Positions 2,988 through 50,005 of a stretch of 56,891 nt of DNA are shown here, piece by piece (within the stretch, counting starts at the first letter, position 1; each line of letters starts with the position of its first letter). The translations under genes were made by a program, and so were the position numbers. The notes under the pieces were generated by a model. That model did not search any database. It worked only from the letters and a program-made list of their open reading frames with translations, and was not told where the DNA came from. The stretch is taken from the NCBI GenBank assembly GCA_964446635.1, contig CAYUPJ010000001.1:1-56891 (forward strand), read 5' to 3'. The DNA is from an uncultured Anaerolineae bacterium. GTDB taxonomy: Bacteria; Chloroflexota; Anaerolineae; VGOG01.

Positions 2988-3779
2988 ATGGAGAAAAGAA
3001 CGCCTGAAAAGGCACGTCGCACGACGAGCCGGATTGGAGGGGTTTCCGTTGCCTGGGTGACCCTGTTCGGCGCTTTGTGTGGCGTGACAGGACTGGTTCC
3101 TATCTTCCCTTACGTCGGAGGTGGCGGGTACGTGCCGCTGACTACCCCGCTCTGCGCCATCGCTCCCCTGCTGCTGGGGCCGGTGGGGGGCGTGGTCGCC
3201 GCCATTGTCGGTGGGGTGATCGGGATGTTTATCGCTCCCGCTGCCTACCCGCTGGTAGTGGTGGACATCTTCCTCAACGCGGTGCTTCCCGCCCTCTTCG
3301 TGGCGCTCATGGTCAGGGCAGACCGCTTGTGGAAGGTCGCCGTGCCGCTGTTCATTGTCCTCGGCATCCTGGGCTGGCTGGTGCCCTTCTACGTTCCGGG
3401 CGCGGCGGCGGGATTCGGCAGGGTGCCCGAGCCGCTCTACTTCATCATGGCTGCTCTCTATTGGGTTCCTTCGACGATCATCGTTGGTTCGCCCCTGGGC
3501 AGACGGTTGATACCCAGGTGGGTGGTCTCTAAGAAACGCGCTGAACGGTATGGCGGCATCTTCCTGGCGATCGTGGCGGCGATGTTCGTGTGGTGGCTGC
3601 CCTGGACTCGCCCTTACTGGTATCAGTTCAACTTCTCCGCCGAGCTGGGTGTCGCCACCCACGTTGCCTACTCCTGGTGGGTGCCAGCGCTTTCGGCCAT
3701 CACCGCGGTCATCACCATCCCCATCGTCGAGGCCCTGGAGCGCAGCGGGTTGCCCAAGATCGAGGGCGCAATCTGGTAA
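2988..3779 (+). CDS. Polytopic membrane protein, candidate ECF-transporter substrate-binding (S) component
   Basis: 263-aa hydrophobic ORF with several predicted TM helices, directly upstream of the ECF A-A' and T genes. Confidence 0.5.
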   Translation: MEKRTPEKARRTTSRIGGVSVAWVTLFGALCGVTGLVPIFPYVGGGGYVPLTTPLCAIAPLLLGPVGGVVAAIVGGVIGMFIAPAAYPLVVVDIFLNAVLPALFVALMVRADRLWKVAVPLFIVLGILGWLVPFYVPGAAAGFGRVPEPLYFIMAALYWVPSTIIVGSPLGRRLIPRWVVSKKRAERYGGIFLAIVAAMFVWWLPWTRPYWYQFNFSAELGVATHVAYSWWVPALSAITAVITIPIVEALERSGLPKIEGAIW

Positions 3780-3794
3780 ACTGAGTCCCTCCTT

Positions 3795-3836
3795 CCCACC
3801 CCCACCCCTACCCCTCCCCCGCGTGCGGGGGAGGGG
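3795..3836 (+). repeat. C-tract motif (G4 on the minus strand) plus a 10-bp GC hairpin
   Basis: cccacccccacccctacccc, then stem cccctccccc (3811-3820) / gggggagggg (3827-3836) with loop gcgtgc. It abuts the RBS aggag of the ATPase gene. Confidence 0.75.
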
Positions 3837-3852
3837 GTTAGGAGAACTGCAC

Positions 3853-5613
3853 GTGGCCAATGACGTTATCATCTCGTTACAAGATGTCACCTTCGCCTAC
3901 GAGGGCGATGTGGTTGCCCTGCGCCATCTGAATCTCACGGCCCATAAGGGCGAATTCGTCGTCGTGTTGGGGGCCAACGGCGCGGGCAAATCCACGCTCT
4001 GCTACCTGCTCAGTGGCATCGTGCCCCACATCTACGGCGGCCGGCGCCAGGGCGACGTATCGGTGGCCGGCCTCGATCCGTGGGACGAGCCGCTGTACAT
4101 CACCTCTCAGCGTTGCGGGGTGTTGATGCAGGACCCCGAGGTGCAGTTATTCATGCCCACGCTGAAAGCAGAGCTGGCCTTCGGTCCGGCCAACCTGGGC
4201 ATGGCCCGGGACGAGATTATCAGGCGCTCGCAGGCCGCCCTGTCATTGGTGCGGCTGGAAGGTCTGGAGGAGCACAACCCGCGCGACCTCTCCGGCGGGC
4301 AGAAGCAGCGCGCGGCGCTGGCCGCCGTGCTGACCATGAACCCCCAGGTGCTGGTGCTCGACGAGCCCACCTCGCAACTCGACCCGCTGGGCCGCTGGGA
4401 GGTGGTGGAGGCCATCGAGCGCCTGAAGCAAAAGGGCGACCTGACCATCGTGATGACCACCCACGAGACCGAGGAGATCCTGCGCCTGGCCGATCAGGTT
4501 ATCGTGCTGGAGCGAGGAGAGACCGCGCTTCAAGGCCCACCCGCGGAAGTCTTCGCTCAAGCCGAGCAACTGGAGGAGGCCGGGGTCAAGACCCCGGCGC
4601 TGATCCTGGTCCAGTCGAAGCTGCTCGAGCGTGAAACTGGCCGCCTGGGTGAGGAGCGGGTTAATCTCACCATCTCCGAGGTCGCCGACCAGACCCGCGG
4701 GGCGGTAGAAGCGGGGAGGCTGGCCGTACATCCCGACGCCCTTCTCCAGCCACGATCAATGGCACCGGACGCCCCCGTCATCCTGGAGGCTCGCGATCTG
4801 ATCGTGGAGTACCCCGGCCCGCCGCGCGTCGTGGCGCTGCGGGACGTAAGCGTTCAGGTTCGCCAGGGCGAGTTCGTGGGCATCGTCGGCCAGAATGGGT
4901 CGGGGAAGAGCACGCTGGTCAAGTGCTTCGTGGGCCTGCTGCGGCCCAGGAAAGGGGAGGTCCTGTTCAGGGGGGAGAGCATCAGGAAACTTTCGATAGG
5001 GGAGATAGCCCGCCGCGTGGGGTTGGTGCTGCAGAACCCCGACTATCAGTTATTCACTGCCTCCTGCCGCGACGAGGTTCGCTTTGGGCTGCGCAACGTG
5101 GGCGTGCCTCCCCAGGAGATGGAGCAGCGAGTCGAGGAAGCGCTACGACTGGTGGATCTGAGCGAGGAGGCCGATCTGTTTCCCTTCCGACTCTCCTTTG
5201 GCGACCGACGCAAACTGGCCGTGGCAGCGACGCTGGCGCTTGAGCCTGAGGTGTTGATCATGGATGAGCCGACCACGGCCCAGGATCACCGCGGACGATA
5301 CCAGTTGGCCGAGTTGGCCCGGCGCTTCCACGAAGAGAAGCAGGGCACGGTGGTGATGATCACCCACGACGTGGACTTGATCGCCCGCTACGCTCACCGG
5401 CTGATCGTTCTCTACGAGGGCCAGGTGTTGCTGGATGGCCCTACGGCGGAGGTATTTACGCAGGTAGAGAAACTCAAGAAGAGCTTCGTCGTGCCACCAG
5501 TGGCGGCTCAACTGGCCGCGGAACTGGTCCCCCTGGGTGTGCCGCCCTACGTGATGACGTTGGAGGAACTCTACCAGGTGCTCGTGCCCCAACGCGACGA
5601 GGAGGTGGTGTAG
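3853..5613 (+). CDS. ECF/ABC transporter ATPase, duplicated (EcfA-EcfA' fusion)
   Basis: Two ABC cassettes: GANGAGKST...LSGGQKQR...LVLDEPT and GQNGSGKST...LSFGDRRK...LIMDEPT. GTG 3853 follows RBS aggag. The track ORF from 3550 overlaps the upstream gene. Confidence 0.85.
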   Translation: MANDVIISLQDVTFAYEGDVVALRHLNLTAHKGEFVVVLGANGAGKSTLCYLLSGIVPHIYGGRRQGDVSVAGLDPWDEPLYITSQRCGVLMQDPEVQLFMPTLKAELAFGPANLGMARDEIIRRSQAALSLVRLEGLEEHNPRDLSGGQKQRAALAAVLTMNPQVLVLDEPTSQLDPLGRWEVVEAIERLKQKGDLTIVMTTHETEEILRLADQVIVLERGETALQGPPAEVFAQAEQLEEAGVKTPALILVQSKLLERETGRLGEERVNLTISEVADQTRGAVEAGRLAVHPDALLQPRSMAPDAPVILEARDLIVEYPGPPRVVALRDVSVQVRQGEFVGIVGQNGSGKSTLVKCFVGLLRPRKGEVLFRGESIRKLSIGEIARRVGLVLQNPDYQLFTASCRDEVRFGLRNVGVPPQEMEQRVEEALRLVDLSEEADLFPFRLSFGDRRKLAVAATLALEPEVLIMDEPTTAQDHRGRYQLAELARRFHEEKQGTVVMITHDVDLIARYAHRLIVLYEGQVLLDGPTAEVFTQVEKLKKSFVVPPVAAQLAAELVPLGVPPYVMTLEELYQVLVPQRDEEVV

Positions 5614-42288: not shown

Positions 42289-42304
42289 GAGCGAAAGGGG
42301 AACT

Positions 42305-45300
42305 ATGCCTATGAGCAAAGTGTTTCTTTCTTCGACCTGGGTGGATTTGAAAGAACATCGTCGGGCGGTAATTGAGGCCCTGGAGCGATTGCGGCACCAG
42401 GGTCTGGAAGTGGAGTGGCGGGGGATGGAATACTTCGGGGCCAAAGACGATTCCCCGGCCAACACCTGCCAGGAGGCTGTGGACTGGGCCAACGTCTACG
42501 TTGGCATCTTTGGCCTGCGCTACGGTTCCCTTGACCCCCAGCGGGGCCTCTCCATGACCGAGTTTGAATACCGCCGCGCTGTCGCCCAGGGCAAGCACCG
42601 CCTGCTCTTCCTGATTGACGAGAAGTATGCCCAGCGTACCATGGCCAGGCATGCAGAGAAGGACTCCCAGGCTCAGGCAAAGCTGCAAAAGCTCAAGGCC
42701 GATGTCCTGGATCGGTGCGTGGAGGCCCATTGCACCGACCCCGGTGACCTGGCAGCCCGGGTGGTGACCGCCCTCCAGCCATATCTCCCCCCACCAACGG
42801 GACGCGCCAGCGTTGAGGAGCCATACCTGCGCTTCCTGGTGGAGGCCGACTGTCGCTACCTGCCCCTGCGCGGCCGTGACCCCCGAGAGAGCTCCCAGGC
42901 CGGCCTGCCTCTGCGGTTGGAGAAGGTCTACATCGCCCTCAACACCACTGAGCGACCTCCTGCCTCCAGGGAAGCAGCCCGCCCAGAAGCCTTTGGGCGT
43001 GAAGAGCAGAAGCCAATCTCGGCTCTGCGGCTGACTCTGGACAACCGGTGCCTGCTTCTCCTGGGTGAGCCTGGCTCGGGCAAGTCCACCTTTGCCGAGC
43101 ATCTGGCCCTCTGTCTGGCCGGTGAGCGGTGGCAGCCGGGCAGTGGCTGGCTGAAGTGGCTGACCACGCCTGACGCCTCCTGGTCTGATCGTGCCCCCTT
43201 GCCGGTGCGTCTACGCTTGCGGGAGTTCGCCGCCGATGTGGCTCGTCTGCCCACCGACGAAGGCCTGACCGGACAGGCCGAACACCTTCTGGCCTACCTG
43301 GAGAAGACCTTGCGGGCCGGCAACTTTCACCCCAACCTGCCTGCACACGTCCTTGGACTGTTAGATCGTGGCGATGTCCTGTTGGTGCTGGACGGGCTGG
43401 ACGAGGTCAGCGACCCCAATCGCCGCCAACGGGTGGCTGAGGCCATCGCTGATCTCAGCCACCACCGCTGTAGCCGTGCCCGCATTATCGTCACCTGTCG
43501 CCTCCGCCAGTACCCGCTAGACCAGGCCGGCCGCCCTGTGGCCCCCTGGTCTCTGCCGGGGTTCCGTGCCACCACTCTGGCCGACTTTGATGCCAGTCAG
43601 GTAGACACCTTCGTGGACCTCTGGTTTGGCGAACTGTGTGACCAGAAGCGTATCACCCCCGTTCAGCGCCAGGACAAGGCCACATCACTGAAGGCAGCCA
43701 TCCGCACCCGGCCAGACCTGCGGGCCATTGCCCCGCGCCCCATCATCCTCACCCAGATGGCCATCGTACACGACGTGCGTGGCGAACTCCCTCCCACCCG
43801 CTTGCAACTCTACATGGAATGTGCTGAATTGCTGTTGTGGGAGTGGGAACGACTGCGGGCCGAACAGGCGGGCCGGCGCGAAAGCGCCGACGAGTTCATC
43901 CAACGCCTGGGCGCCCCTGGTCTACGCCGAGAACATCTGCAAAGTGCCCTGGATCACGCCGTCTACGACGCTCACGCCCAGCCCGGCCAGGCCGCTGATG
44001 CTCCGGCCAACATCACCGAGGAAATCCTGAGCAAGCACCTGACAGTTTGCCTGGAGCGCACGGGTTTGCCCCGTCACGAGGTGGTGGGCCGGGTGCAGCG
44101 GTTCATAGACGAATACTTGCGGTTGCGCAATGGTCTCATCGTCCCCGCTGGCGAGGGAACCTTTCAGACCCCCCACCGCAGTTTCCAGGAGTTCCTGGCC
44201 GCCAGGCACCTGGCGGTCAACCGCATCCGCTCCTTCACCAGCGAAGTGCCTGGATTGGTCAGGCAGAACTATGACCTGTGGCGGGAGGTCTTCTTGCTGG
44301 CGGTAGGCCAGGCCGGACTCAACAACGCTGTGGATGCCATAGACCGTCTATGCCCGTTGGCTCTACCAGAGACTCCGGACGGCTGGCAGCATCTCTGCCT
44401 GGCCGGCCGGGCTCTCGCTGAGGTGGGCCTGCCCACAGTGCGCGGCGACGAGAAGGGGCCAGGTCTGGAAGAGCGTGTCGAGCGCCTGCTCTACCACACC
44501 ATGCGGGATACCGACGAGCATGACGTGCCTCACGACCCGCCTCGCGTCCCCATCCGCACCCGCGCCGACGCTGGCGAGGTATTGGACGAGCTGCGCTCGC
44601 TGCCGAAAGACCTGGACGCCTTCCTGCCAGTGCCGGCGACCAAACCTGCCTTCTGGATGGCCCGCTATCCCGTCACCAATGCTCAGTACGAACGCTTCAT
44701 CCAGGCGGGAGGCTACGGGGAGCGACGTTGGTGGAGCGACGAGGGCTGGAAGTGGCGCCAGGGAAAACCGCGTTGGGAGTGGCAGAGGACGGATCGGCCC
44801 GATTTCTGGGATGACCCTCGCTGGAATCGAAAGAGCTACCCGGTGGTGGGCGTCACCTGGTATGAGGCGGAGGCCTACTGCAACTGGCTGACAGAGCAGA
44901 TGCGAGAAGCGGAATGCAAGATTCAGGTGGTCAATGCCAACGAGGAGATCGGCGAGCTGCGACTGGAGAACTGTCGCGTGCGGTTGCCTACGGAAGAGGA
45001 GTGGTTACTGGCTGCGCGGGGGCAGGGGAGCCGGGAGTATCCCTGGGAGGGCAGTTTCGACCCGGCCCGGGCGAATACCAGTGAGAGCAACCTGGGTAGT
45101 ACTACACCTGTAGCCATGTATCCCGCTGGAGCCAGCACGCATGGCGTCTGGGACATGGCCGGCAACGTCTGGGAGTGGACTGGGTCATGGTATGATGAGA
45201 AGACCAAAGACTCCCGTGTGTTGCGTGGCGGGTCGTGGTTCTACGATCTGGACTTCGCCCGCTGTGCGTTCCGCGACTGGGACTACCCCGACTACTCGTA

Positions 45301-45346
45301 CCTCAGCTTCGGGTTTTGGGTCGTGGTTTCCCCCGGCTCTCCCTAG
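42305..45346 (+). CDS. DUF4062-NACHT-FGE/C-type-lectin STAND NTPase (NLR-like), the DGR variable protein
   Basis: N-terminus SKVFLSSTWVDLKEHRRAV...VYVGIFGLRYG...EFEYRRAVAQGKHRLLFL. Walker A GEPGSGKST (43064-43090) and Walker B VLLVLDGLDEV. C-terminal FGE-sulfatase motifs YPVTNAQYERF, WYEAEAYCNWL, RLPTEEEW, GNVWEWT and LRGGSW. ATG 42305 follows RBS aagggga. Confidence 0.88.
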   Translation: MPMSKVFLSSTWVDLKEHRRAVIEALERLRHQGLEVEWRGMEYFGAKDDSPANTCQEAVDWANVYVGIFGLRYGSLDPQRGLSMTEFEYRRAVAQGKHRLLFLIDEKYAQRTMARHAEKDSQAQAKLQKLKADVLDRCVEAHCTDPGDLAARVVTALQPYLPPPTGRASVEEPYLRFLVEADCRYLPLRGRDPRESSQAGLPLRLEKVYIALNTTERPPASREAARPEAFGREEQKPISALRLTLDNRCLLLLGEPGSGKSTFAEHLALCLAGERWQPGSGWLKWLTTPDASWSDRAPLPVRLRLREFAADVARLPTDEGLTGQAEHLLAYLEKTLRAGNFHPNLPAHVLGLLDRGDVLLVLDGLDEVSDPNRRQRVAEAIADLSHHRCSRARIIVTCRLRQYPLDQAGRPVAPWSLPGFRATTLADFDASQVDTFVDLWFGELCDQKRITPVQRQDKATSLKAAIRTRPDLRAIAPRPIILTQMAIVHDVRGELPPTRLQLYMECAELLLWEWERLRAEQAGRRESADEFIQRLGAPGLRREHLQSALDHAVYDAHAQPGQAADAPANITEEILSKHLTVCLERTGLPRHEVVGRVQRFIDEYLRLRNGLIVPAGEGTFQTPHRSFQEFLAARHLAVNRIRSFTSEVPGLVRQNYDLWREVFLLAVGQAGLNNAVDAIDRLCPLALPETPDGWQHLCLAGRALAEVGLPTVRGDEKGPGLEERVERLLYHTMRDTDEHDVPHDPPRVPIRTRADAGEVLDELRSLPKDLDAFLPVPATKPAFWMARYPVTNAQYERFIQAGGYGERRWWSDEGWKWRQGKPRWEWQRTDRPDFWDDPRWNRKSYPVVGVTWYEAEAYCNWLTEQMREAECKIQVVNANEEIGELRLENCRVRLPTEEEWLLAARGQGSREYPWEGSFDPARANTSESNLGSTTPVAMYPAGASTHGVWDMAGNVWEWTGSWYDEKTKDSRVLRGGSWFYDLDFARCAFRDWDYPDYSYLSFGFWVVVSPGSP
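45213..45332 (+). repeat. DGR variable repeat (VR)
   Basis: 120 nt aligning to 46947-47066 with 20 mismatches, 19 of them at TR adenines. Covers the last ~40 codons of the NACHT protein. Confidence 0.9.
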
Positions 45347-45395
45347 TTCTGGTTTCTGAAATGCTGGTTTCTGGTTGCTGATTTCTGGGGGGAGT

Positions 45396-45420
45396 CTGAG
45401 GGGGGCAAAGCCCCCCTCAG
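45396..45420 (+). promoter_or_regulatory. GC-rich hairpin downstream of VR (candidate DGR target-recognition element and/or terminator)
   Basis: Perfect 11-bp stem ctgaggggggc / gcccccctcag with loop aaa. A second small hairpin, ggcgc-gaa-gcgcc, lies at 45429-45441. Confidence 0.55.
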
Positions 45421-45492
45421 AGGGTATCGGCGCGAAGCGCCGTCGCGGGTAGTGGTTTGTAAACCCTATGCTCTGCTAGAAACATAGAACTG

Positions 45493-46557
45493 ATGAAGAC
45501 ATATCGCAACCTCTATCCCCAGGTCTGGGCTTTCGAGAACCTGTACCTAGCCTACCGCAAGGCCCGCAAGGGCAAGCGAGGCCGGGAACCGGCGGCCACC
45601 TTCGAGTTTGATTGGGAGGTCAACCTGCTCCAACTCCAGCAAGAGCTGACTACCAAGACCTATCAGCCCGGCCCATACCACAGCTTCTACATCCACGAGC
45701 CCAAACGGCGTCTCGTCTCCGCCGCTCCTTTCCGTGATCGTGTCGTACACCACGCCCTCTGCAACGTCATCGAGCCCATCTTCGAGCGCCGCTTCATTCA
45801 CGACAGCTATGCCAACCGCGTGGGCAAGGGCACCCATCGAGCTTTGGATTGCTGTACTTTCTTCGCCCGGCGATACAGCTATGTACTCCAGTGCGATGTC
45901 AAACAGTTCTTCCCCAGCATTGACCATGCCATTCTGAGACGCATCCTGGCCCGCTACGTCGCCGACGAAGATGTACTGTGGCTGGCGGATCGCGTCCTGG
46001 AAAGTGGAGTAGGCATCCTTTCCGAAGAGTACGAGATGCAGTGGTTTCCGGGTGACGACCTGACGGCAGCTCTTTGCCCCCGTGGCCTGCCCATCGGCAA
46101 CCTCACCAGCCAGTTCTGGGCCAACGTCTATCTCAACGAGCTGGATCAGTTTGTCAAGCGCACCCTCAAAAGCCCAGCCTACATCCGCTATGTAGACGAT
46201 TTCCTGCTTTTCAGCGACGACAAGCTCACTCTGCATGCTTGGCGTGAGGCCATCATCAAGTTCCTGGTCAGCCTGCGCCTGCGCTTACACGAGAGCCGCG
46301 CTCAGGTCTATCCTACGACTGAGGGCATCCCCTTCCTGGGCTTCAGAGTCTACCCGACTCATCGTCGCCTGAAACGGACCAAGGGCCTTGCCTTCCAACG
46401 GAGACTGAAACGGCTCCTGGCAGCCTACGCCACCCGCGAAATCGAAAGCGAGCAACTGAACGCCTCGGTGCAGGGTTGGGTAGCTCATGCTTCCCATGGC
46501 GACACCTATGGCCTACGTCGGGCTGTGCTGGGAGCGAGTTCCATACCTCGGAGGTAA
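45493..46557 (+). CDS. DGR-type reverse transcriptase
   Basis: 354 aa. RDRVVHHAL, ANRVGKGTH, LPIGNLTSQFWANVYLNELD (46093-46113 encodes IGNLTSQ), catalytic YVDD (46189-46200). Confidence 0.9.
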   Translation: MKTYRNLYPQVWAFENLYLAYRKARKGKRGREPAATFEFDWEVNLLQLQQELTTKTYQPGPYHSFYIHEPKRRLVSAAPFRDRVVHHALCNVIEPIFERRFIHDSYANRVGKGTHRALDCCTFFARRYSYVLQCDVKQFFPSIDHAILRRILARYVADEDVLWLADRVLESGVGILSEEYEMQWFPGDDLTAALCPRGLPIGNLTSQFWANVYLNELDQFVKRTLKSPAYIRYVDDFLLFSDDKLTLHAWREAIIKFLVSLRLRLHESRAQVYPTTEGIPFLGFRVYPTHRRLKRTKGLAFQRRLKRLLAAYATREIESEQLNASVQGWVAHASHGDTYGLRRAVLGASSIPRR

Positions 46558-46561
46558 CGTC

Positions 46562-46915
46562 ATGAAGGAATCACCTATCTTCGCTCGCACCCATGACATG
46601 CTATTATGGCTCATCCCGCATACCACGAACCACTTCCCTCGATCGCAGAGATTCGTGATGGCCAAGAGGGTACAAGACAGGGCCTTGGACTTTCAGGAGC
46701 TTATCCTGGAAGCGGGACTGAGCAAAGACTCTCAGCGAGCAGAACGACTGGCCCAGGCTGACATAGAGCTGGCCAAGCTGCGTTTCCACCTGCGACTGTG
46801 TCATGAAATGAGACTGTTCTCGCTGGGACAGTATGAGCATGTCGCCCGCATGGTGGCCGAGATCGGTCGGCTGCTGGGTGGGTGGCGCGAATCAGCGGCA
46901 ACACCGGCGGATTGA
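46562..46915 (+). CDS. avd: Avd-like accessory variability determinant (four-helix-bundle protein)
   Basis: 117 aa. FPRSQRFVMAKRVQDRALDF...LRFHLRLCHEMRL...IGRLLGGW resembles the Avd / 23S-IVS protein family. ATG 46562 follows RBS ggagg. Confidence 0.8.
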   Translation: MKESPIFARTHDMLLWLIPHTTNHFPRSQRFVMAKRVQDRALDFQELILEAGLSKDSQRAERLAQADIELAKLRFHLRLCHEMRLFSLGQYEHVARMVAEIGRLLGGWRESAATPAD

Positions 46916-46946
46916 ACGCCATATTGTGGGGGCAGACCGAAGGAGA

Positions 46947-47066
46947 CCCGTGTGTTGCGTGGCGGGTCGTGGAACAACAATCAGAACAACGCCCGCTGTG
47001 CGTACCGCAACAGGAACAACCCCGACAACTCGAACAACAACATCGGGTTTCGGGTCGTGGTTTCCC
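46947..47066 (+). repeat. DGR template repeat (TR)
   Basis: Adenine-rich. Read in the VR frame it carries 11 AAC codons (NNNQNN..NRNN..N.NNNI). Noncoding, starting 31 nt after the avd stop. Confidence 0.9.
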
Positions 47067-47198
47067 ACGATCCTCTACACTGGCCAGGAATACCGCACGC
47101 CCAAGGGTTTGCGGTCGAGGCCGCAAAGGAGAGCCGGCGTGGTCTGTTTCCCGGCCGACGGTTGAGCTCTGGTCTGACCGTCGGGCAAATACACAATA

Positions 47199-47254
47199 GC
47201 CCCGCCCCCTGTGGTAGGTCTGAGCCTGTGGAGGACCGAAGCCTGGGGCGGGGC
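47199..47254 (+). ncRNA. Structured GC-rich region downstream of TR (candidate DGR RNA spacer element)
   Basis: 10-bp stem gccccgcccc (47199-47208) / ggggcggggc (47245-47254) enclosing ~36 nt. No convincing ORF. Confidence 0.35.
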
Positions 47255-47322
47255 ACCCTTGCAAAGCAGGCACCCTTTGGTCGAATTCCATTTCAATTGT
47301 AGCACAACAAAAGCGGAACCTA

Positions 47323-47503
47323 TGAAAGCCTGTCTAATCACCGGCGAATTCCCACCCATGCAAGGCGGCGTGGGCGATTTCCTAACGAGCTGGGTAAGGT
47401 GTTGGCAAAGCTGGGAGTTGAGGTCAGCGTCGCTACTCTGGCGCGTATCGCCGCCTACCGACAGGTGCGGCGGAGCAGGCTGCAACCCTGGAGAATAGAA
47501 GTG
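47323..47503 (+). pseudogene. 5' remnant of a GT4 glycosyltransferase paralogue (frameshifted)
   Basis: MKACLITGEFPPMQGGVGDF compared with MRIVLISGEFPPLQGGVGDF at 50007. After a 1-nt frame change it continues NELGKVLAKLGVEVSV, compared with NELGKALAELGHEVHV, and then loses similarity. Confidence 0.6.
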
Positions 47504-50005
47504 ATGAGTCCCCGTCGCTGGTGGGCTGCTGCTCTTCTAATTGTACTGGTGGGTGTCGTCAGTTCGATTTACATCATTACCGCCTTCGCCACGGCCGACG
47601 GACGCCCGGTGGCGCCTTTGGACGATGCGTACATCACCTATCAATACGCCCGTCAGATCGCGCGGGGCTATCCCTACCAGTACAACGACGGGGATCCCCC
47701 GACGACGGGGATGACCAGCCCACTGTTCGGTTTCCTGCTGGCAGGGGTTTACCTCTTGGGCTTTACTGGCGAGCGGCTCGTCGCTTTCGCTGTGGGAGCA
47801 GGCGTGCTCTGGCTGGTACTGATCGCCTGGCTGACTTATCGCCTGACTTCCCATCTGACAACCGATACAGGCTGGTCACTGATTGCAGCCGTTCTCGTCC
47901 TCCTCAGTGGCCCGGTGCAGTGGGGATGCTTCAACGGGATGGAGACGGGGTTCTTCACCGTGCTGACCCTGGCTGCCCTGGACGCTTTCCTGGCCGGGCG
48001 AACCGCCTGGTGCGCTCTGTGGTTGGGCCTGACGGGGCTCACCCGACCCGAGGGCCTGATCCTGATCGGGTTGATTTGGGTGGTGACCCTGACGAAGGGC
48101 CTCCTCAACTCCGGCGTCGTTCGTCGGAAACAGATGGGCATTCTTTCAGTGGCGGTTGCGGTGGGACTCGTGCCTCTTCTCATCAATTGGACGCTTACCG
48201 GCACAACCGCCGCATCAGGCCTCCAGGCCAAGTCCTGGTGGTTTAACGTTCCTTTCTATCCGGTGGACATCATCCGCTTCATCTTTGGTTTCTACGGACG
48301 GATTATCGTTCGCTTCCTGGGGTGGGAATCCCCTGCCCGCTGGTTCGCGCCGCCCGGCTTCCTCTTGCTCTCTATCCTGGGGTGGGTCAGCCTGGGGATG
48401 CGACGCCGCTGGACGGCGCTGGCCGTGACCGCTTTGTGGTTCCTGGTGGGCACGTTGTCCACCGCCACCTTGATCACAGCCACCTGGCATCTGGGCCGCT
48501 ATCAGGTCCCGTTTGTGCCGCTGGTCATCGTTCTGACGGTCTGTGGCCTGACATTCTTCTCCGGTCGAGCGGTGCAATGGTGGCCACGCGTCCTGTTGGG
48601 GTTGGCGACGCTCCTGCTATTGAGCTTCTCCATATACGGAAGCCTGAGTCTTGTGCGCTCCTATCGTAGCGCAGTTGGCACGATGGTTCGACAGCAACTG
48701 GCAGTTGTGGAATGGCTGCAGGAGAATCTGCCTCCTGATGCCCGCGTGGGCGTCCATGACATCGGCAGTCTGCGTTACCTCGGCCAGCGGGCAACTTATG
48801 ATCTGATCGGCCTGACGACAGCAGATGCCGCCATCGCCTGGCGGCACGGCGCGGGGAGCGTGTTTGAACTGATGGAACACTCGCCCATGCGTCCCGACTA
48901 CTTCGCCATCTATCCGGACATCTTCTTCATCCCCTACCTGGCGGCAACTGATCTGTTCGCCGACGAGTTGTTTCGAGTGGAGGTGCCCGACTACTCCGGC
49001 GTCACCAGTGCCGGCCCGGTCCAGGGGGTGTGGCGGGCCGACTGGCACCTGACCGATACTTCGACTGGGCTCAGTACAAGCAGCGGTGAGCAGTTCTACC
49101 AACCTGATGTCCGGGAACGAACAGCCGGCTTCAGGCTGGTAGATAGGCTGGACGTGGCCGATCTCGATGACGAGGCGGCCCACGGCGTGAAGTGGTGGCA
49201 CGATGCCCGCCCTTCCGGTTGGCCCACTGAGGTGTGGCAATTGACCTACCGCGACCCCCCTGATCGAGAAGTGCTGGACGGTGGGCGGTTGTTGACCGGC
49301 GGCGTATCCTTCGAGGTGGCGACCAGGCCCGGTGAGCCGCTGCAGATCGTGGCTCGGCTGCACGCTCAGGAGGCAGGAGCGGTGCGGGTGGAAGTGAGCG
49401 GACGGGACTTGGGGCGCTGGGCCTATCCTGCCGTGCCGGGCCAGTGGCTGGAGACGGTGTTCTGGGTGCCGGCCGAGGCCATCACCAGCTCTCAGACGCG
49501 CGTCGTGCTGCGGGTGGACGCGTCCAACCCGGACTTTCGCTACTACGCCCCCTATCACTTCTGGTTCCTGCAGGGGGAAGTAGAGATCGTGCACCGATTA
49601 GAGGTCACTTTTGACGGGGGGTTCCGCCTGGTAGGCTTCGACCTGCCGGAGCGAGCCTGGCATCCCGGCGATGTGATGCTAGTGACGCTCTACTGGCAGG
49701 TCACCGCGCCGACCCAGAGTGAGGCCAAGGTTTTCCTCCACCTGTACGACGCCGATGGCCGCCTGGGTCCTCAATCCGACGGCTGGGCCTTTCACGGCAC
49801 CCGCCCTCCCCACACCTGGTACCCAGGCGAGGTCGTGATTGATCCCCGGCCCCTGGCCTTGCCAGCGGACCTGCGGCCAGGTCAGTATTCGCTGGAGGTG
49901 GGCCTGTACAACCCCGATGGGGTAGTGCGGCTTGCGGCCTACCTCAACGGTGTTCGTCAACACGAGGACCGGGTACCTTTGACAGTGATCGAGGTCATGG
50001 AGTAG
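47504..50005 (+). CDS. GT-C-like polytopic membrane protein with extracytoplasmic C-terminal domain
   Basis: ATG 47504. Many TM helices, DDAYITYQYA motif near the N-terminus. The C-terminal domain is shared with the 51297-53345 protein. Confidence 0.65.
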   Translation: MSPRRWWAAALLIVLVGVVSSIYIITAFATADGRPVAPLDDAYITYQYARQIARGYPYQYNDGDPPTTGMTSPLFGFLLAGVYLLGFTGERLVAFAVGAGVLWLVLIAWLTYRLTSHLTTDTGWSLIAAVLVLLSGPVQWGCFNGMETGFFTVLTLAALDAFLAGRTAWCALWLGLTGLTRPEGLILIGLIWVVTLTKGLLNSGVVRRKQMGILSVAVAVGLVPLLINWTLTGTTAASGLQAKSWWFNVPFYPVDIIRFIFGFYGRIIVRFLGWESPARWFAPPGFLLLSILGWVSLGMRRRWTALAVTALWFLVGTLSTATLITATWHLGRYQVPFVPLVIVLTVCGLTFFSGRAVQWWPRVLLGLATLLLLSFSIYGSLSLVRSYRSAVGTMVRQQLAVVEWLQENLPPDARVGVHDIGSLRYLGQRATYDLIGLTTADAAIAWRHGAGSVFELMEHSPMRPDYFAIYPDIFFIPYLAATDLFADELFRVEVPDYSGVTSAGPVQGVWRADWHLTDTSTGLSTSSGEQFYQPDVRERTAGFRLVDRLDVADLDDEAAHGVKWWHDARPSGWPTEVWQLTYRDPPDREVLDGGRLLTGGVSFEVATRPGEPLQIVARLHAQEAGAVRVEVSGRDLGRWAYPAVPGQWLETVFWVPAEAITSSQTRVVLRVDASNPDFRYYAPYHFWFLQGEVEIVHRLEVTFDGGFRLVGFDLPERAWHPGDVMLVTLYWQVTAPTQSEAKVFLHLYDADGRLGPQSDGWAFHGTRPPHTWYPGEVVIDPRPLALPADLRPGQYSLEVGLYNPDGVVRLAAYLNGVRQHEDRVPLTVIEVME
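49060..49080 (+). repeat. Dispersed core repeat copy in-frame in the membrane-protein CDS
   Basis: ttcgactgggctcagtacaag encodes TSTGLSTS. With flank tgaccgatac it is 29/31 identical to 50743-50773. Confidence 0.8.

Follow-up and report, generated by a model that had tools for sequence, protein, structure and literature searches.

Hypervariable NACHT/nSTAND1-lectin proteins diversified by diversity-generating retroelements (DGRs) have been described in multicellular bacteria and proposed to be antigen sensors (Doré et al. 2024, PNAS, PMC10907252), and related DGR-linked conflict systems have been reported as well (Kaur et al. 2020, PMC7159879). Here we describe a cassette of this kind, in which a gene for a DUF4062-NACHT-FGE protein is followed by the genes and repeats of a DGR, on a 56,891-nt stretch of DNA from an uncultured Anaerolineae bacterium (contig CAYUPJ010000001.1, positions 1 to 56,891, assembly GCA_964446635.1; called the window below). 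The cassette belongs to the class already described, and our interpretation of it is the same as the published one (PMC10907252). What we add is modest: the effector can now be named, as DUF4062, and the exchange of effector and sensor modules among relatives is documented.

The likeness to the class of Doré et al. lies in a cellular DGR, with reverse transcriptase (RT), Avd and template repeat (TR), standing beside a STAND NTPase whose C-terminal FGE-type lectin holds the variable repeat (VR); it extends to the host, which is from a filamentous lineage of the Chloroflexota, and to the proposed role, that of a sensor inside the cell which is hypervariable and linked to cell death. RT clade 5D of that study takes in Anaerolineae/Anaerolineales, and the fit of our cassette to this clade is one of architecture and host class. 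There is a single target here, whereas targets are commonly duplicated in the published class. Many of the published targets are extended at the N-terminus by sequence that is uncharacterised, and in some the head is a TIR or peptidase domain (PMC10907252); in our case, by contrast, the extension is nameable as DUF4062, a term absent from the text and supplements of that paper.

A preliminary description of the window, made from the DNA letters, had called the DUF4062 module functionally uncharacterised. This is outdated, as two 2026 preprints (bioRxiv 10.64898/2026.05.01.722283 and 10.64898/2026.06.25.731849) define DUF4062 as a TIR-like NADase with a defined catalytic Glu, and report NAD+ depletion by DUF4062 proteins, which defend against phage through abortive infection. 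The NADase identity sharpens the earlier receptor model and does not contradict it. With the Swarozyc (KpSwz) and Evangelion systems our target shares the N-terminal DUF4062 TIR-like domain, its conserved Glu (E88 here, E97 in KpSwz) and the union of effector and sensor in a single polypeptide; unlike our target, these systems sense through a helical auxiliary domain (phage portal in the case of KpSwz) and have no NACHT, lectin or DGR. Retroelements and FGE domains are mentioned in neither preprint. Judged by its sequence, the target has the effector alone in common with Swarozyc and Evangelion and is a member of neither.

The tripartite layout of effector, nucleotide-binding oligomerisation domain (NOD) and sensor, with swappable effector heads, is also that of bNACHT (Kibby et al. 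2023) and Avs STAND proteins, whose sensors are fixed in the germline, whereas the sensor here is diversified by a retroelement. FGE-sulfatase sensor modules on STANDs are illustrated in a 2026 STAND survey (PMC13581612) that does not mention DGRs. The same arrangement of an N-terminal DUF4062 followed by NACHT is found in the human proteins TEP1, NWD1, NWD2 and NPHP3 (the two DUF4062 preprints), in which the C-terminal modules are instead WD40 or TPR and a diversification mechanism is lacking.

As for the retroelement itself, the cassette resembles the BPP-1 DGR (Mtd/bRT/Avd) in having Avd, an adenine-specific transfer from TR to VR, a lectin fold whose C-terminus holds the VR, and a structured RNA beside the TR; as candidate homing signals it has an end resembling the initiation of mutagenic homing (IMH) sequence and a hairpin downstream of it. 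The BPP-1 genes are ordered mtd-avd-TR-brt, in contrast to the order target-RT-avd-TR-spacer observed here. Treponema TvpA has the same FGE subtype of the lectin fold. Both BPP-1 and TvpA differ from our case in that the diversified protein is a phage tail fibre or a surface lipoprotein, while the target here is predicted to be cytoplasmic and signalling-competent.

The retroelement and its mutagenic signature

The main parts of the cassette are as follows.

42296..47263, + strand: whole DGR and target cassette, ~5 kb, the sole block common to the window and JGI contig Ga0315268_10000414 (L001) by blastn
42311..45346, + strand: target gene, DUF4062-NACHT-FGE/C-type-lectin protein of 1011 aa (1013 aa from ATG 42305)
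45213..45335, + strand: VR, the last ~41 codons of the target, a direct repeat with the TR at an offset of 1734
45493..46557, + strand: DGR reverse transcriptase (Pfam RVT_1, E 1.3e-19)
46093-46113, + strand: RT motif IGNLTSQ
46189-46200, + strand: RT motif YVDD
46562..46915, + strand: Avd accessory protein (NCBIfam NF033474 DivGenRetAVD, 97.2 bits, cut-off 80)
46947..47069, + strand: TR, with 17 adenine-containing codons, mostly AAC

The order is thus target-RT-Avd-TR, followed by a spacer RNA, all on the + strand. The features named in the preliminary description are present at or very near the positions it gave; VR and TR come out at 123 nt, with the TR reaching to 47069 (120 nt and 47066 in that description).

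VR and TR form the longest direct repeat of the region, and they differ at 21 positions, 20 of which fall on adenines of the TR, although only 30 of its 123 nt are adenines; the probability of so adenine-biased a pattern arising by chance is ~1e-11 (binomial on the VR/TR counts). Nineteen of the adenine mismatches (45239-45308) are spread over 16 codons (aa 979-1002), and the one at 45333 is a fixed difference between IMH and its counterpart in the TR (IMH*), which is present in the related locus L001 too. The number of 16 variable codons had been put forward in the preliminary description, and is borne out by these counts. The adenine-specific divergence is a mark of past retrohoming. The codon design of the TR (AAC/AAT) is such that ~1e17 protein variants are encodable and stop codons are impossible. 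No second VR was found in the window.

The best PDB match of the RT is 8ub7_A (E 5.9e-55, 190 bits), an RT chain deposited together with an Avd chain, which we take to be the Bordetella phage bRT of the bRT-Avd complex. Scores of 75-85 bits against the window RT are reached by chains deposited under the name "retron-type" RT and by a group II intron RT (85 bits, E 3.7e-23), and with 148 bits the NCBIfam model for group II introns stays under its cut-off of 300. The enzyme is therefore nearest to a DGR RT and not to the two classes that would have spoken against the preliminary assignment. IGxxxSQ is the signature of DGR RTs, and is present here as IGNLTSQ. The RT is 53-57% identical to DGR RTs of Accumulibacter (L033, L048). 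The accessory protein matches Pfam bAvd (E 2e-18) and, weakly, Avd chains in the PDB. When the RT (354 aa) and the 117-aa and 142-aa forms of Avd were looked up as exact sequences, nothing was on record.

A sister cassette is present on L001. Its target, P0002, is 77% identical to ours, the order target-RT-Avd-TR is kept, and the locus sits between unrelated metabolic genes. Blastn of the window against L001 gives one block (42296-47263 = L001 7986-13024, 78.6% identity) and no homology in the flanks, where the genes differ. Within the block the TRs are near-identical and the VRs differ at adenine positions. The ratio of nonsynonymous to synonymous substitution rates (dN/dS) between the two loci is 0.12 for the target (aa 1-740), 0.10 for the RT and 0.14 for Avd, indicating that all three have been under purifying selection.

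Besides its genes and repeats, the cassette contains several non-coding elements.

45309..45343, + strand: IMH-like 3' end of the VR, a G+C-rich stretch identical to the TR except at 45317, then CCGGCTCTCC in the VR against ACGATCCTCT (IMH*) in the TR
45347..45392, + strand: three copies of a [T/G]CTG[G/A]TTTCTG motif (CTGGTTTCTG-like), between stop codon and hairpin
45395..45421, + strand: perfect 12-bp G+C-rich hairpin with a 3-nt loop, 3' of the VR, a candidate DGR target-recognition hairpin/cruciform
45428-45442, + strand: second small hairpin, 3' of the 12-bp hairpin
47070..47258, + strand: conserved structured non-coding RNA 3' of the TR, ~190 nt with three predicted hairpins

The difference between CCGGCTCTCC and ACGATCCTCT is likewise kept in L001, as is the 12-bp hairpin, there with one compensatory change from C-G to T-A. 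The DNA fold of the stretch after the VR has a z-score of -3.9 and is more stable than 200/200 shuffles; a T-run is absent from the hairpin, and the terminator scan made no call there. For the RNA downstream of the TR, we found 5 compensatory pairs between the window and L001, and compensatory change in 14/37 predicted pairs when the window, L001, L043 and L081 were compared. We interpret this RNA as a spacer-like part of the DGR RNA. A search of the non-coding parts against Rfam gave no family match, the sole hit being a chance match to a miRNA. The copies of the [T/G]CTG[G/A]TTTCTG motif are tandem-like in the window, and the equivalent site of L001 has four of them.

The target protein and its relatives

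The target protein is divided into the following regions.

42317..42784, + strand: DUF4062 (TIR-like) domain, predicted NADase effector (Pfam PF13271)
42566..42568, + strand: codon of Glu88 (TEFE88Y), predicted catalytic residue from the alignment to KpSwz E97
43049..43627, + strand: NACHT P-loop NTPase domain (Pfam PF05729)
43064-43090, + strand: Walker A motif GEPGSGKST
43376-43408, + strand: Walker B motif VLLVLDGLDEV
43490-43501, + strand: sensor Arg in the motif VTCR
43628..44638, + strand: helical region between NACHT and lectin, with a conserved PHRSFQEFLAARHL motif at 44171-44212
44639..45325, + strand: FGE-type C-type-lectin fold, the sensor (Pfam PF03781)

The open reading frame (ORF) ends at 45346 and in its longest form opens at TTG 42191; we favour ATG 42311 as the start because of the database gene call P0001 (1011 aa) and of homologues that open with MSKVFLSS. 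In Pfam the protein matches DUF4062 (aa 5-92, E 9.5e-21, 74.2 bits, cut-off 24.7), NACHT (aa 249-441, E 1.9e-10, 41.3 bits, cut-off 26.7) and FGE-sulfatase (aa 779-1007, E 8.8e-47, above the curated cut-off), with a further match to NPHP3_N; together with the Avd profile, all the families expected in the preliminary description were found above threshold. The NCBIfam model EruA reaches 42 bits against a cut-off of 1000. The effector-NOD-sensor layout is seen both in this domain order and in the exchange of the two end modules among relatives. Hydrophobic segments are absent (over 19 residues, the Kyte-Doolittle score does not exceed 1.14), and the protein is therefore probably cytoplasmic. An extracellular adhesin, the classical kind of DGR target, was considered and rejected, as the protein contains an NTPase and lacks both signal peptide and transmembrane segment.

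The N-terminal domain matches the solved DUF4062 structure of KpSwz, 10wc_A (E 1.6e-7), as well as human TEP1, 11gz_A. The KpSwz match is limited to aa 5-130 of the target, the remainder being NACHT and FGE. An AlphaFold model of the domain (pLDDT 84) has a beta-alpha-beta topology, and its top Foldseek matches are nucleoside 2'-deoxyribosyltransferases and TIR domains. Glu88 does not vary among 19 DUF4062 homologues, and in the alignment to the KpSwz E97A chain it stands opposite the substituted Ala, E97 being the catalytic residue of KpSwz (bioRxiv 10.64898/2026.05.01.722283). We predict that the DUF4062 domain is an NADase effector.

In an alignment of 59 homologues, residues G254, P256, G257, G259, K260, D363 and R399 of the NTPase core are invariant. 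The same alignment shows H624 and E629 to be invariant in the region that follows, which the preliminary description had regarded as a long helical spacer. It is helical, as had been said, but it is probably more than a mere spacer, and we suggest that 43628..44638 is the helical/winged-helix part of the NOD module; the winged-helix His would be assigned by reference to established STAND architecture.

For the C-terminal domain, structure prediction gave a model (pLDDT 93, pTM 0.92) with the FGE-type C-type-lectin fold anticipated in the preliminary description. Foldseek matches it to EgtB, OvsA and FGE, and also to TvpA (2y3c, E 3.7e-13), the variable protein of a Treponema DGR. Column entropy over 57 family members averages 3.22 bits at the 16 diversified codons, as against 1.24 bits at the VR codons without adenine and 1.83 bits elsewhere in the FGE domain (p = 2e-8, Mann-Whitney). 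The positions equivalent to the diversified codons are hypervariable over the 57 homologues on a conserved scaffold, which is the pattern of a TvpA-like variable protein.

Among relatives of the target, its modules recur in other combinations. In P0004-P0006, NOD and linker are 82-84% identical to ours and the N-terminus is unrelated, helical and unannotated. P0028 has a lectin domain 78% identical to that of the target, a DUF4062 domain that is 58% and a NOD that is 28% identical; this mosaic implies recombination near aa 700, moving the DGR-targeted sensor between NACHT cores. The swap points among the relatives are at ~aa 165 for the N-terminus and at ~aa 700 for the sensor. Other heads in the family are TIR_2, metallophosphatase, trypsin, CHAT, HNH and kinase domains, and DUF4062-NACHT pairs are found elsewhere in the family with HEAT or TPR sensors. 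Taken from these comparisons of sequence, effector and sensor modules are exchanged in the manner typical of NLRs (nucleotide-binding leucine-rich repeat receptors).

The relatives occur in Chloroflexota, Nitrospirota, Verrucomicrobiota, Desulfobacterales, Methylococcales and others, and RT and Avd lie within 6 kb at about a third of the NACHT+FGE loci. In Nitrospira sp. UBA6909 (L056, DKBD01000050.1) a DUF4062...FGE protein adjoins a DGR RT and Avd, so that the combination of DUF4062 with a DGR lectin is not confined to Chloroflexota. Throughout P0004-P0027 (NOD 57-84% identical) DUF4062 is replaced by a helical N-terminal domain of ~165-200 aa, which has no significant match in Pfam and may be an undescribed effector or adaptor head. 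A search of species-representative genomes with the target gave a best match just 33% identical, and the source species is therefore unrepresented there for this gene.

Proposed function and alternatives

Profiles, RT class, lectin fold and the adenine-specific differences between VR and TR jointly support the reading of the anatomy given in the preliminary description, that of an NLR-like STAND protein diversified by a DGR. Going one step further, we suggest with moderate confidence that the cassette is a self-contained DGR that diversifies a cytoplasmic NLR-like STAND receptor with an NADase death output, and that its role is antiviral. We infer current DGR activity, a ligand, NACHT-driven activation, NADase activity and a role in defence, which would be connected as follows. 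Target, RT, Avd and TR would be transcribed as an operon, and RT and Avd would copy the TR RNA, with its structured 3' spacer, into cDNA, misincorporating opposite template adenines. With the IMH-like end and the hairpin beyond it as guides, this cDNA would then take the place of the VR in the 3' part of the target gene. As many as 17 codons of the lectin's ligand-binding face could be rewritten in this way, with ~1e17 sequences possible, while the N-terminal domain, the NACHT switch and the scaffold of the lectin would remain constant. Binding of a cognate intracellular ligand by the lectin, most likely a protein of a phage or other invader, would lift auto-inhibition; the NACHT module would exchange nucleotide, oligomerise and gather the DUF4062 TIR-like domains. 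These in turn would hydrolyse NAD+, so that the infected cell would stop growing or die (abortive infection) and the clonal filament would be protected.

A bolder version of this proposal is that the cassette is a portable, anticipatory immune receptor, the lectin paratope of which is continually re-randomised by its own retroelement over the ~1e17 variants, whose NADase, switched on when a matching invader protein is bound, sacrifices the cell, and which spreads between Anaerolineae genomes, swapping heads and sensors on the way. We put this forward tentatively, as a real possibility that falls short of being probable. If true, cells of one clonal filament would carry different specificities, and the system would be the prokaryotic equivalent of a receptor repertoire that is diversified somatically and connected to an innate effector of cell death.

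Several results weigh against an antiviral receptor that is diversified today, and we discuss them together with the alternatives that draw on them. The Avs1-5/bNACHT models of PADLOC v2 left the target unmatched, with just two weak matches limited to the P-loop (E > 5e-4). A defence-island setting had to be rejected, as the genes adjoining the cassette are GDP-sugar, glycosyltransferase, TatD and polyprenyl-synthase genes, with no defence genes among the neighbours; and a literature search found no experimental test of any DGR-diversified STAND protein. The housekeeping and glycan-synthesis neighbours without a defence island, the absence of a PADLOC match and the cytoplasmic nature of the protein would also suit a receptor of the same anatomy that serves self/non-self (kin) recognition or other non-viral sensing, like the fungal HET/NWD NLRs, as an allorecognition or regulatory sensor. 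The occurrence of DUF4062-NACHT in eukaryotic NWD1, NWD2, TEP1 and NPHP3, and the regulatory-tuning role proposed for cyanobacterial DGR targets (PMC7517822), point the same way. We nonetheless find such a role unlikely, given that antiphage NAD+ depletion is the sole experimentally defined role of bacterial DUF4062, that a neighbouring cell is not directly visible to a cytoplasmic lectin sensor, and that the alternative heads of the family (TIR, protease, HNH, metallophosphatase) are typical of defence effectors.

The remaining contrary results concern the state of the DGR, and would be accounted for if it had diversified the receptor in the past and no longer worked, leaving a fixed specificity or a decaying protein. 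At 45317 (codon 1005) is the sole non-adenine mismatch, C47051 of the TR having become T in the VR, which changes Arg to Trp in the GFRVV scaffold, at a column that is nearly invariant (entropy 0.51 bits across 57 homologues); this could be due to drift after the most recent homing, or the fold could have been weakened. In L001 the VR is 1 nt shorter than its TR (L001:11083-11095; the same in ENA k141_538101), shifting the frame of the last ~20 codons of P0002 (tail ...SGFGLWFPPALLKFWFLEF), which could be a real inactivation or a consensus artefact of a heterogeneous VR. Each of the two changes could be genuine decay, or an artefact of assembling a heterogeneous region. Population variants of the VR were found neither in look-ups nor in a metagenome scan with the IMH 20-mer GTGGTTTCCCCCGGCTCTCC, which yielded six loci, none of them a strain variant of the window VR. 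Finally, some homologues have no adjacent DGR: the DUF4062-NACHT-FGE proteins of L095 (GCA_016190665.1 JACPQD010000029.1) and L097 (JGI Ga0604949_0000191) lack RT and Avd within 6 kb; a distant DGR may act on them in trans, or they may be fixed in the germline.

Against a fossil element stand the intact RT, Avd and target with their dN/dS of 0.10-0.14, the presence of the catalytic YVDD and of IGNLTSQ, the retained AAC codon design of the TR, and the conservation of IMH, hairpin and spacer RNA with compensatory changes; moreover, the sister VRs differ while their TRs are nearly identical. We regard loss of DGR function as improbable. A reading of the C-terminal domain as a SUMF1/EgtB/PvdO-family enzyme, and of the whole protein as an NTPase-regulated oxidase, can be set aside as highly improbable: homologues are annotated as "SUMF1/EgtB/PvdO family nonheme iron enzyme" and EgtB, OvsA and FGE are the best matches in sequence and fold, but all FGE/EgtB enzyme equivalogs score far under their NCBIfam cut-offs (EgtB 90 bits against 360, PvdO 28 against 500), the N-terminal half of EgtB is unmatched, the rewriting of the C-terminal ~40 residues by the DGR is incompatible with a fixed active site, and TvpA, itself a DGR variable protein, matches the fold too.

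That retroelement hypermutation builds an adaptive-like repertoire of intracellular receptors has been a hypothesis since 2020-2024, and most published examples are multi-gene systems with effectors that are unknown or act in trans. The cassette described here is unusually compact: a single polypeptide combines sensor, switch and effector, and the same 5 kb hold the RT, Avd, TR and spacer RNA. With an effector read-out available since 2026 (NAD+ hydrolysis, with a catalytic Glu), it is a practical test construct, with which ligand-specific activation by VR variants and the running of the DGR in a heterologous host could be tested. Whether NACHT oligomerisation activates DUF4062 is a question that bears on human TEP1, NWD1 and NPHP3 as well. 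Should the immune-repertoire hypothesis be wrong, the cassette would be one more catalogued DGR target.

In the course of the metagenome work, L083 and L088 were considered as two alleles of one locus; this was rejected, as their common stretch is just ~300 nt around the VR, and they are different loci. L097 lies among Uma2-family nuclease genes, beside a Cas6 gene.

Genomic surroundings

RpoB encoded in the window shares 84-87% identity with proteins from metagenome-assembled genomes of Anaerolineales and Anaerolineae. The presence of rpoB and of an apparent ribosomal-protein/fusA/tuf/secY/rpoA cluster indicates that the window is chromosomal. Runs ERR3804377/8 and ERR4334730-36 have short Logan contigs that contain the S7 gene of the host. 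Promoter and terminator scans gave matches no more frequent than in shuffled sequence.

Two further genes of the window may be mentioned. At 3550-5613 (+ strand), unrelated to the cassette, is a double ABC_tran ATPase without membrane domain, ABC-F-like, which has a faint, sub-threshold match to nSTAND1. Directly 3' of the cassette is an ORF of 868 aa (47399-50005, + strand), the long N-terminal half of which is very hydrophobic and apparently multi-pass membrane. It is without a match in Pfam, NCBIfam and PADLOC, and precedes GT4, PMT_2-type and beta-helix genes; judging by this neighbourhood, it may be an unannotated glycosyltransferase-C-like enzyme.

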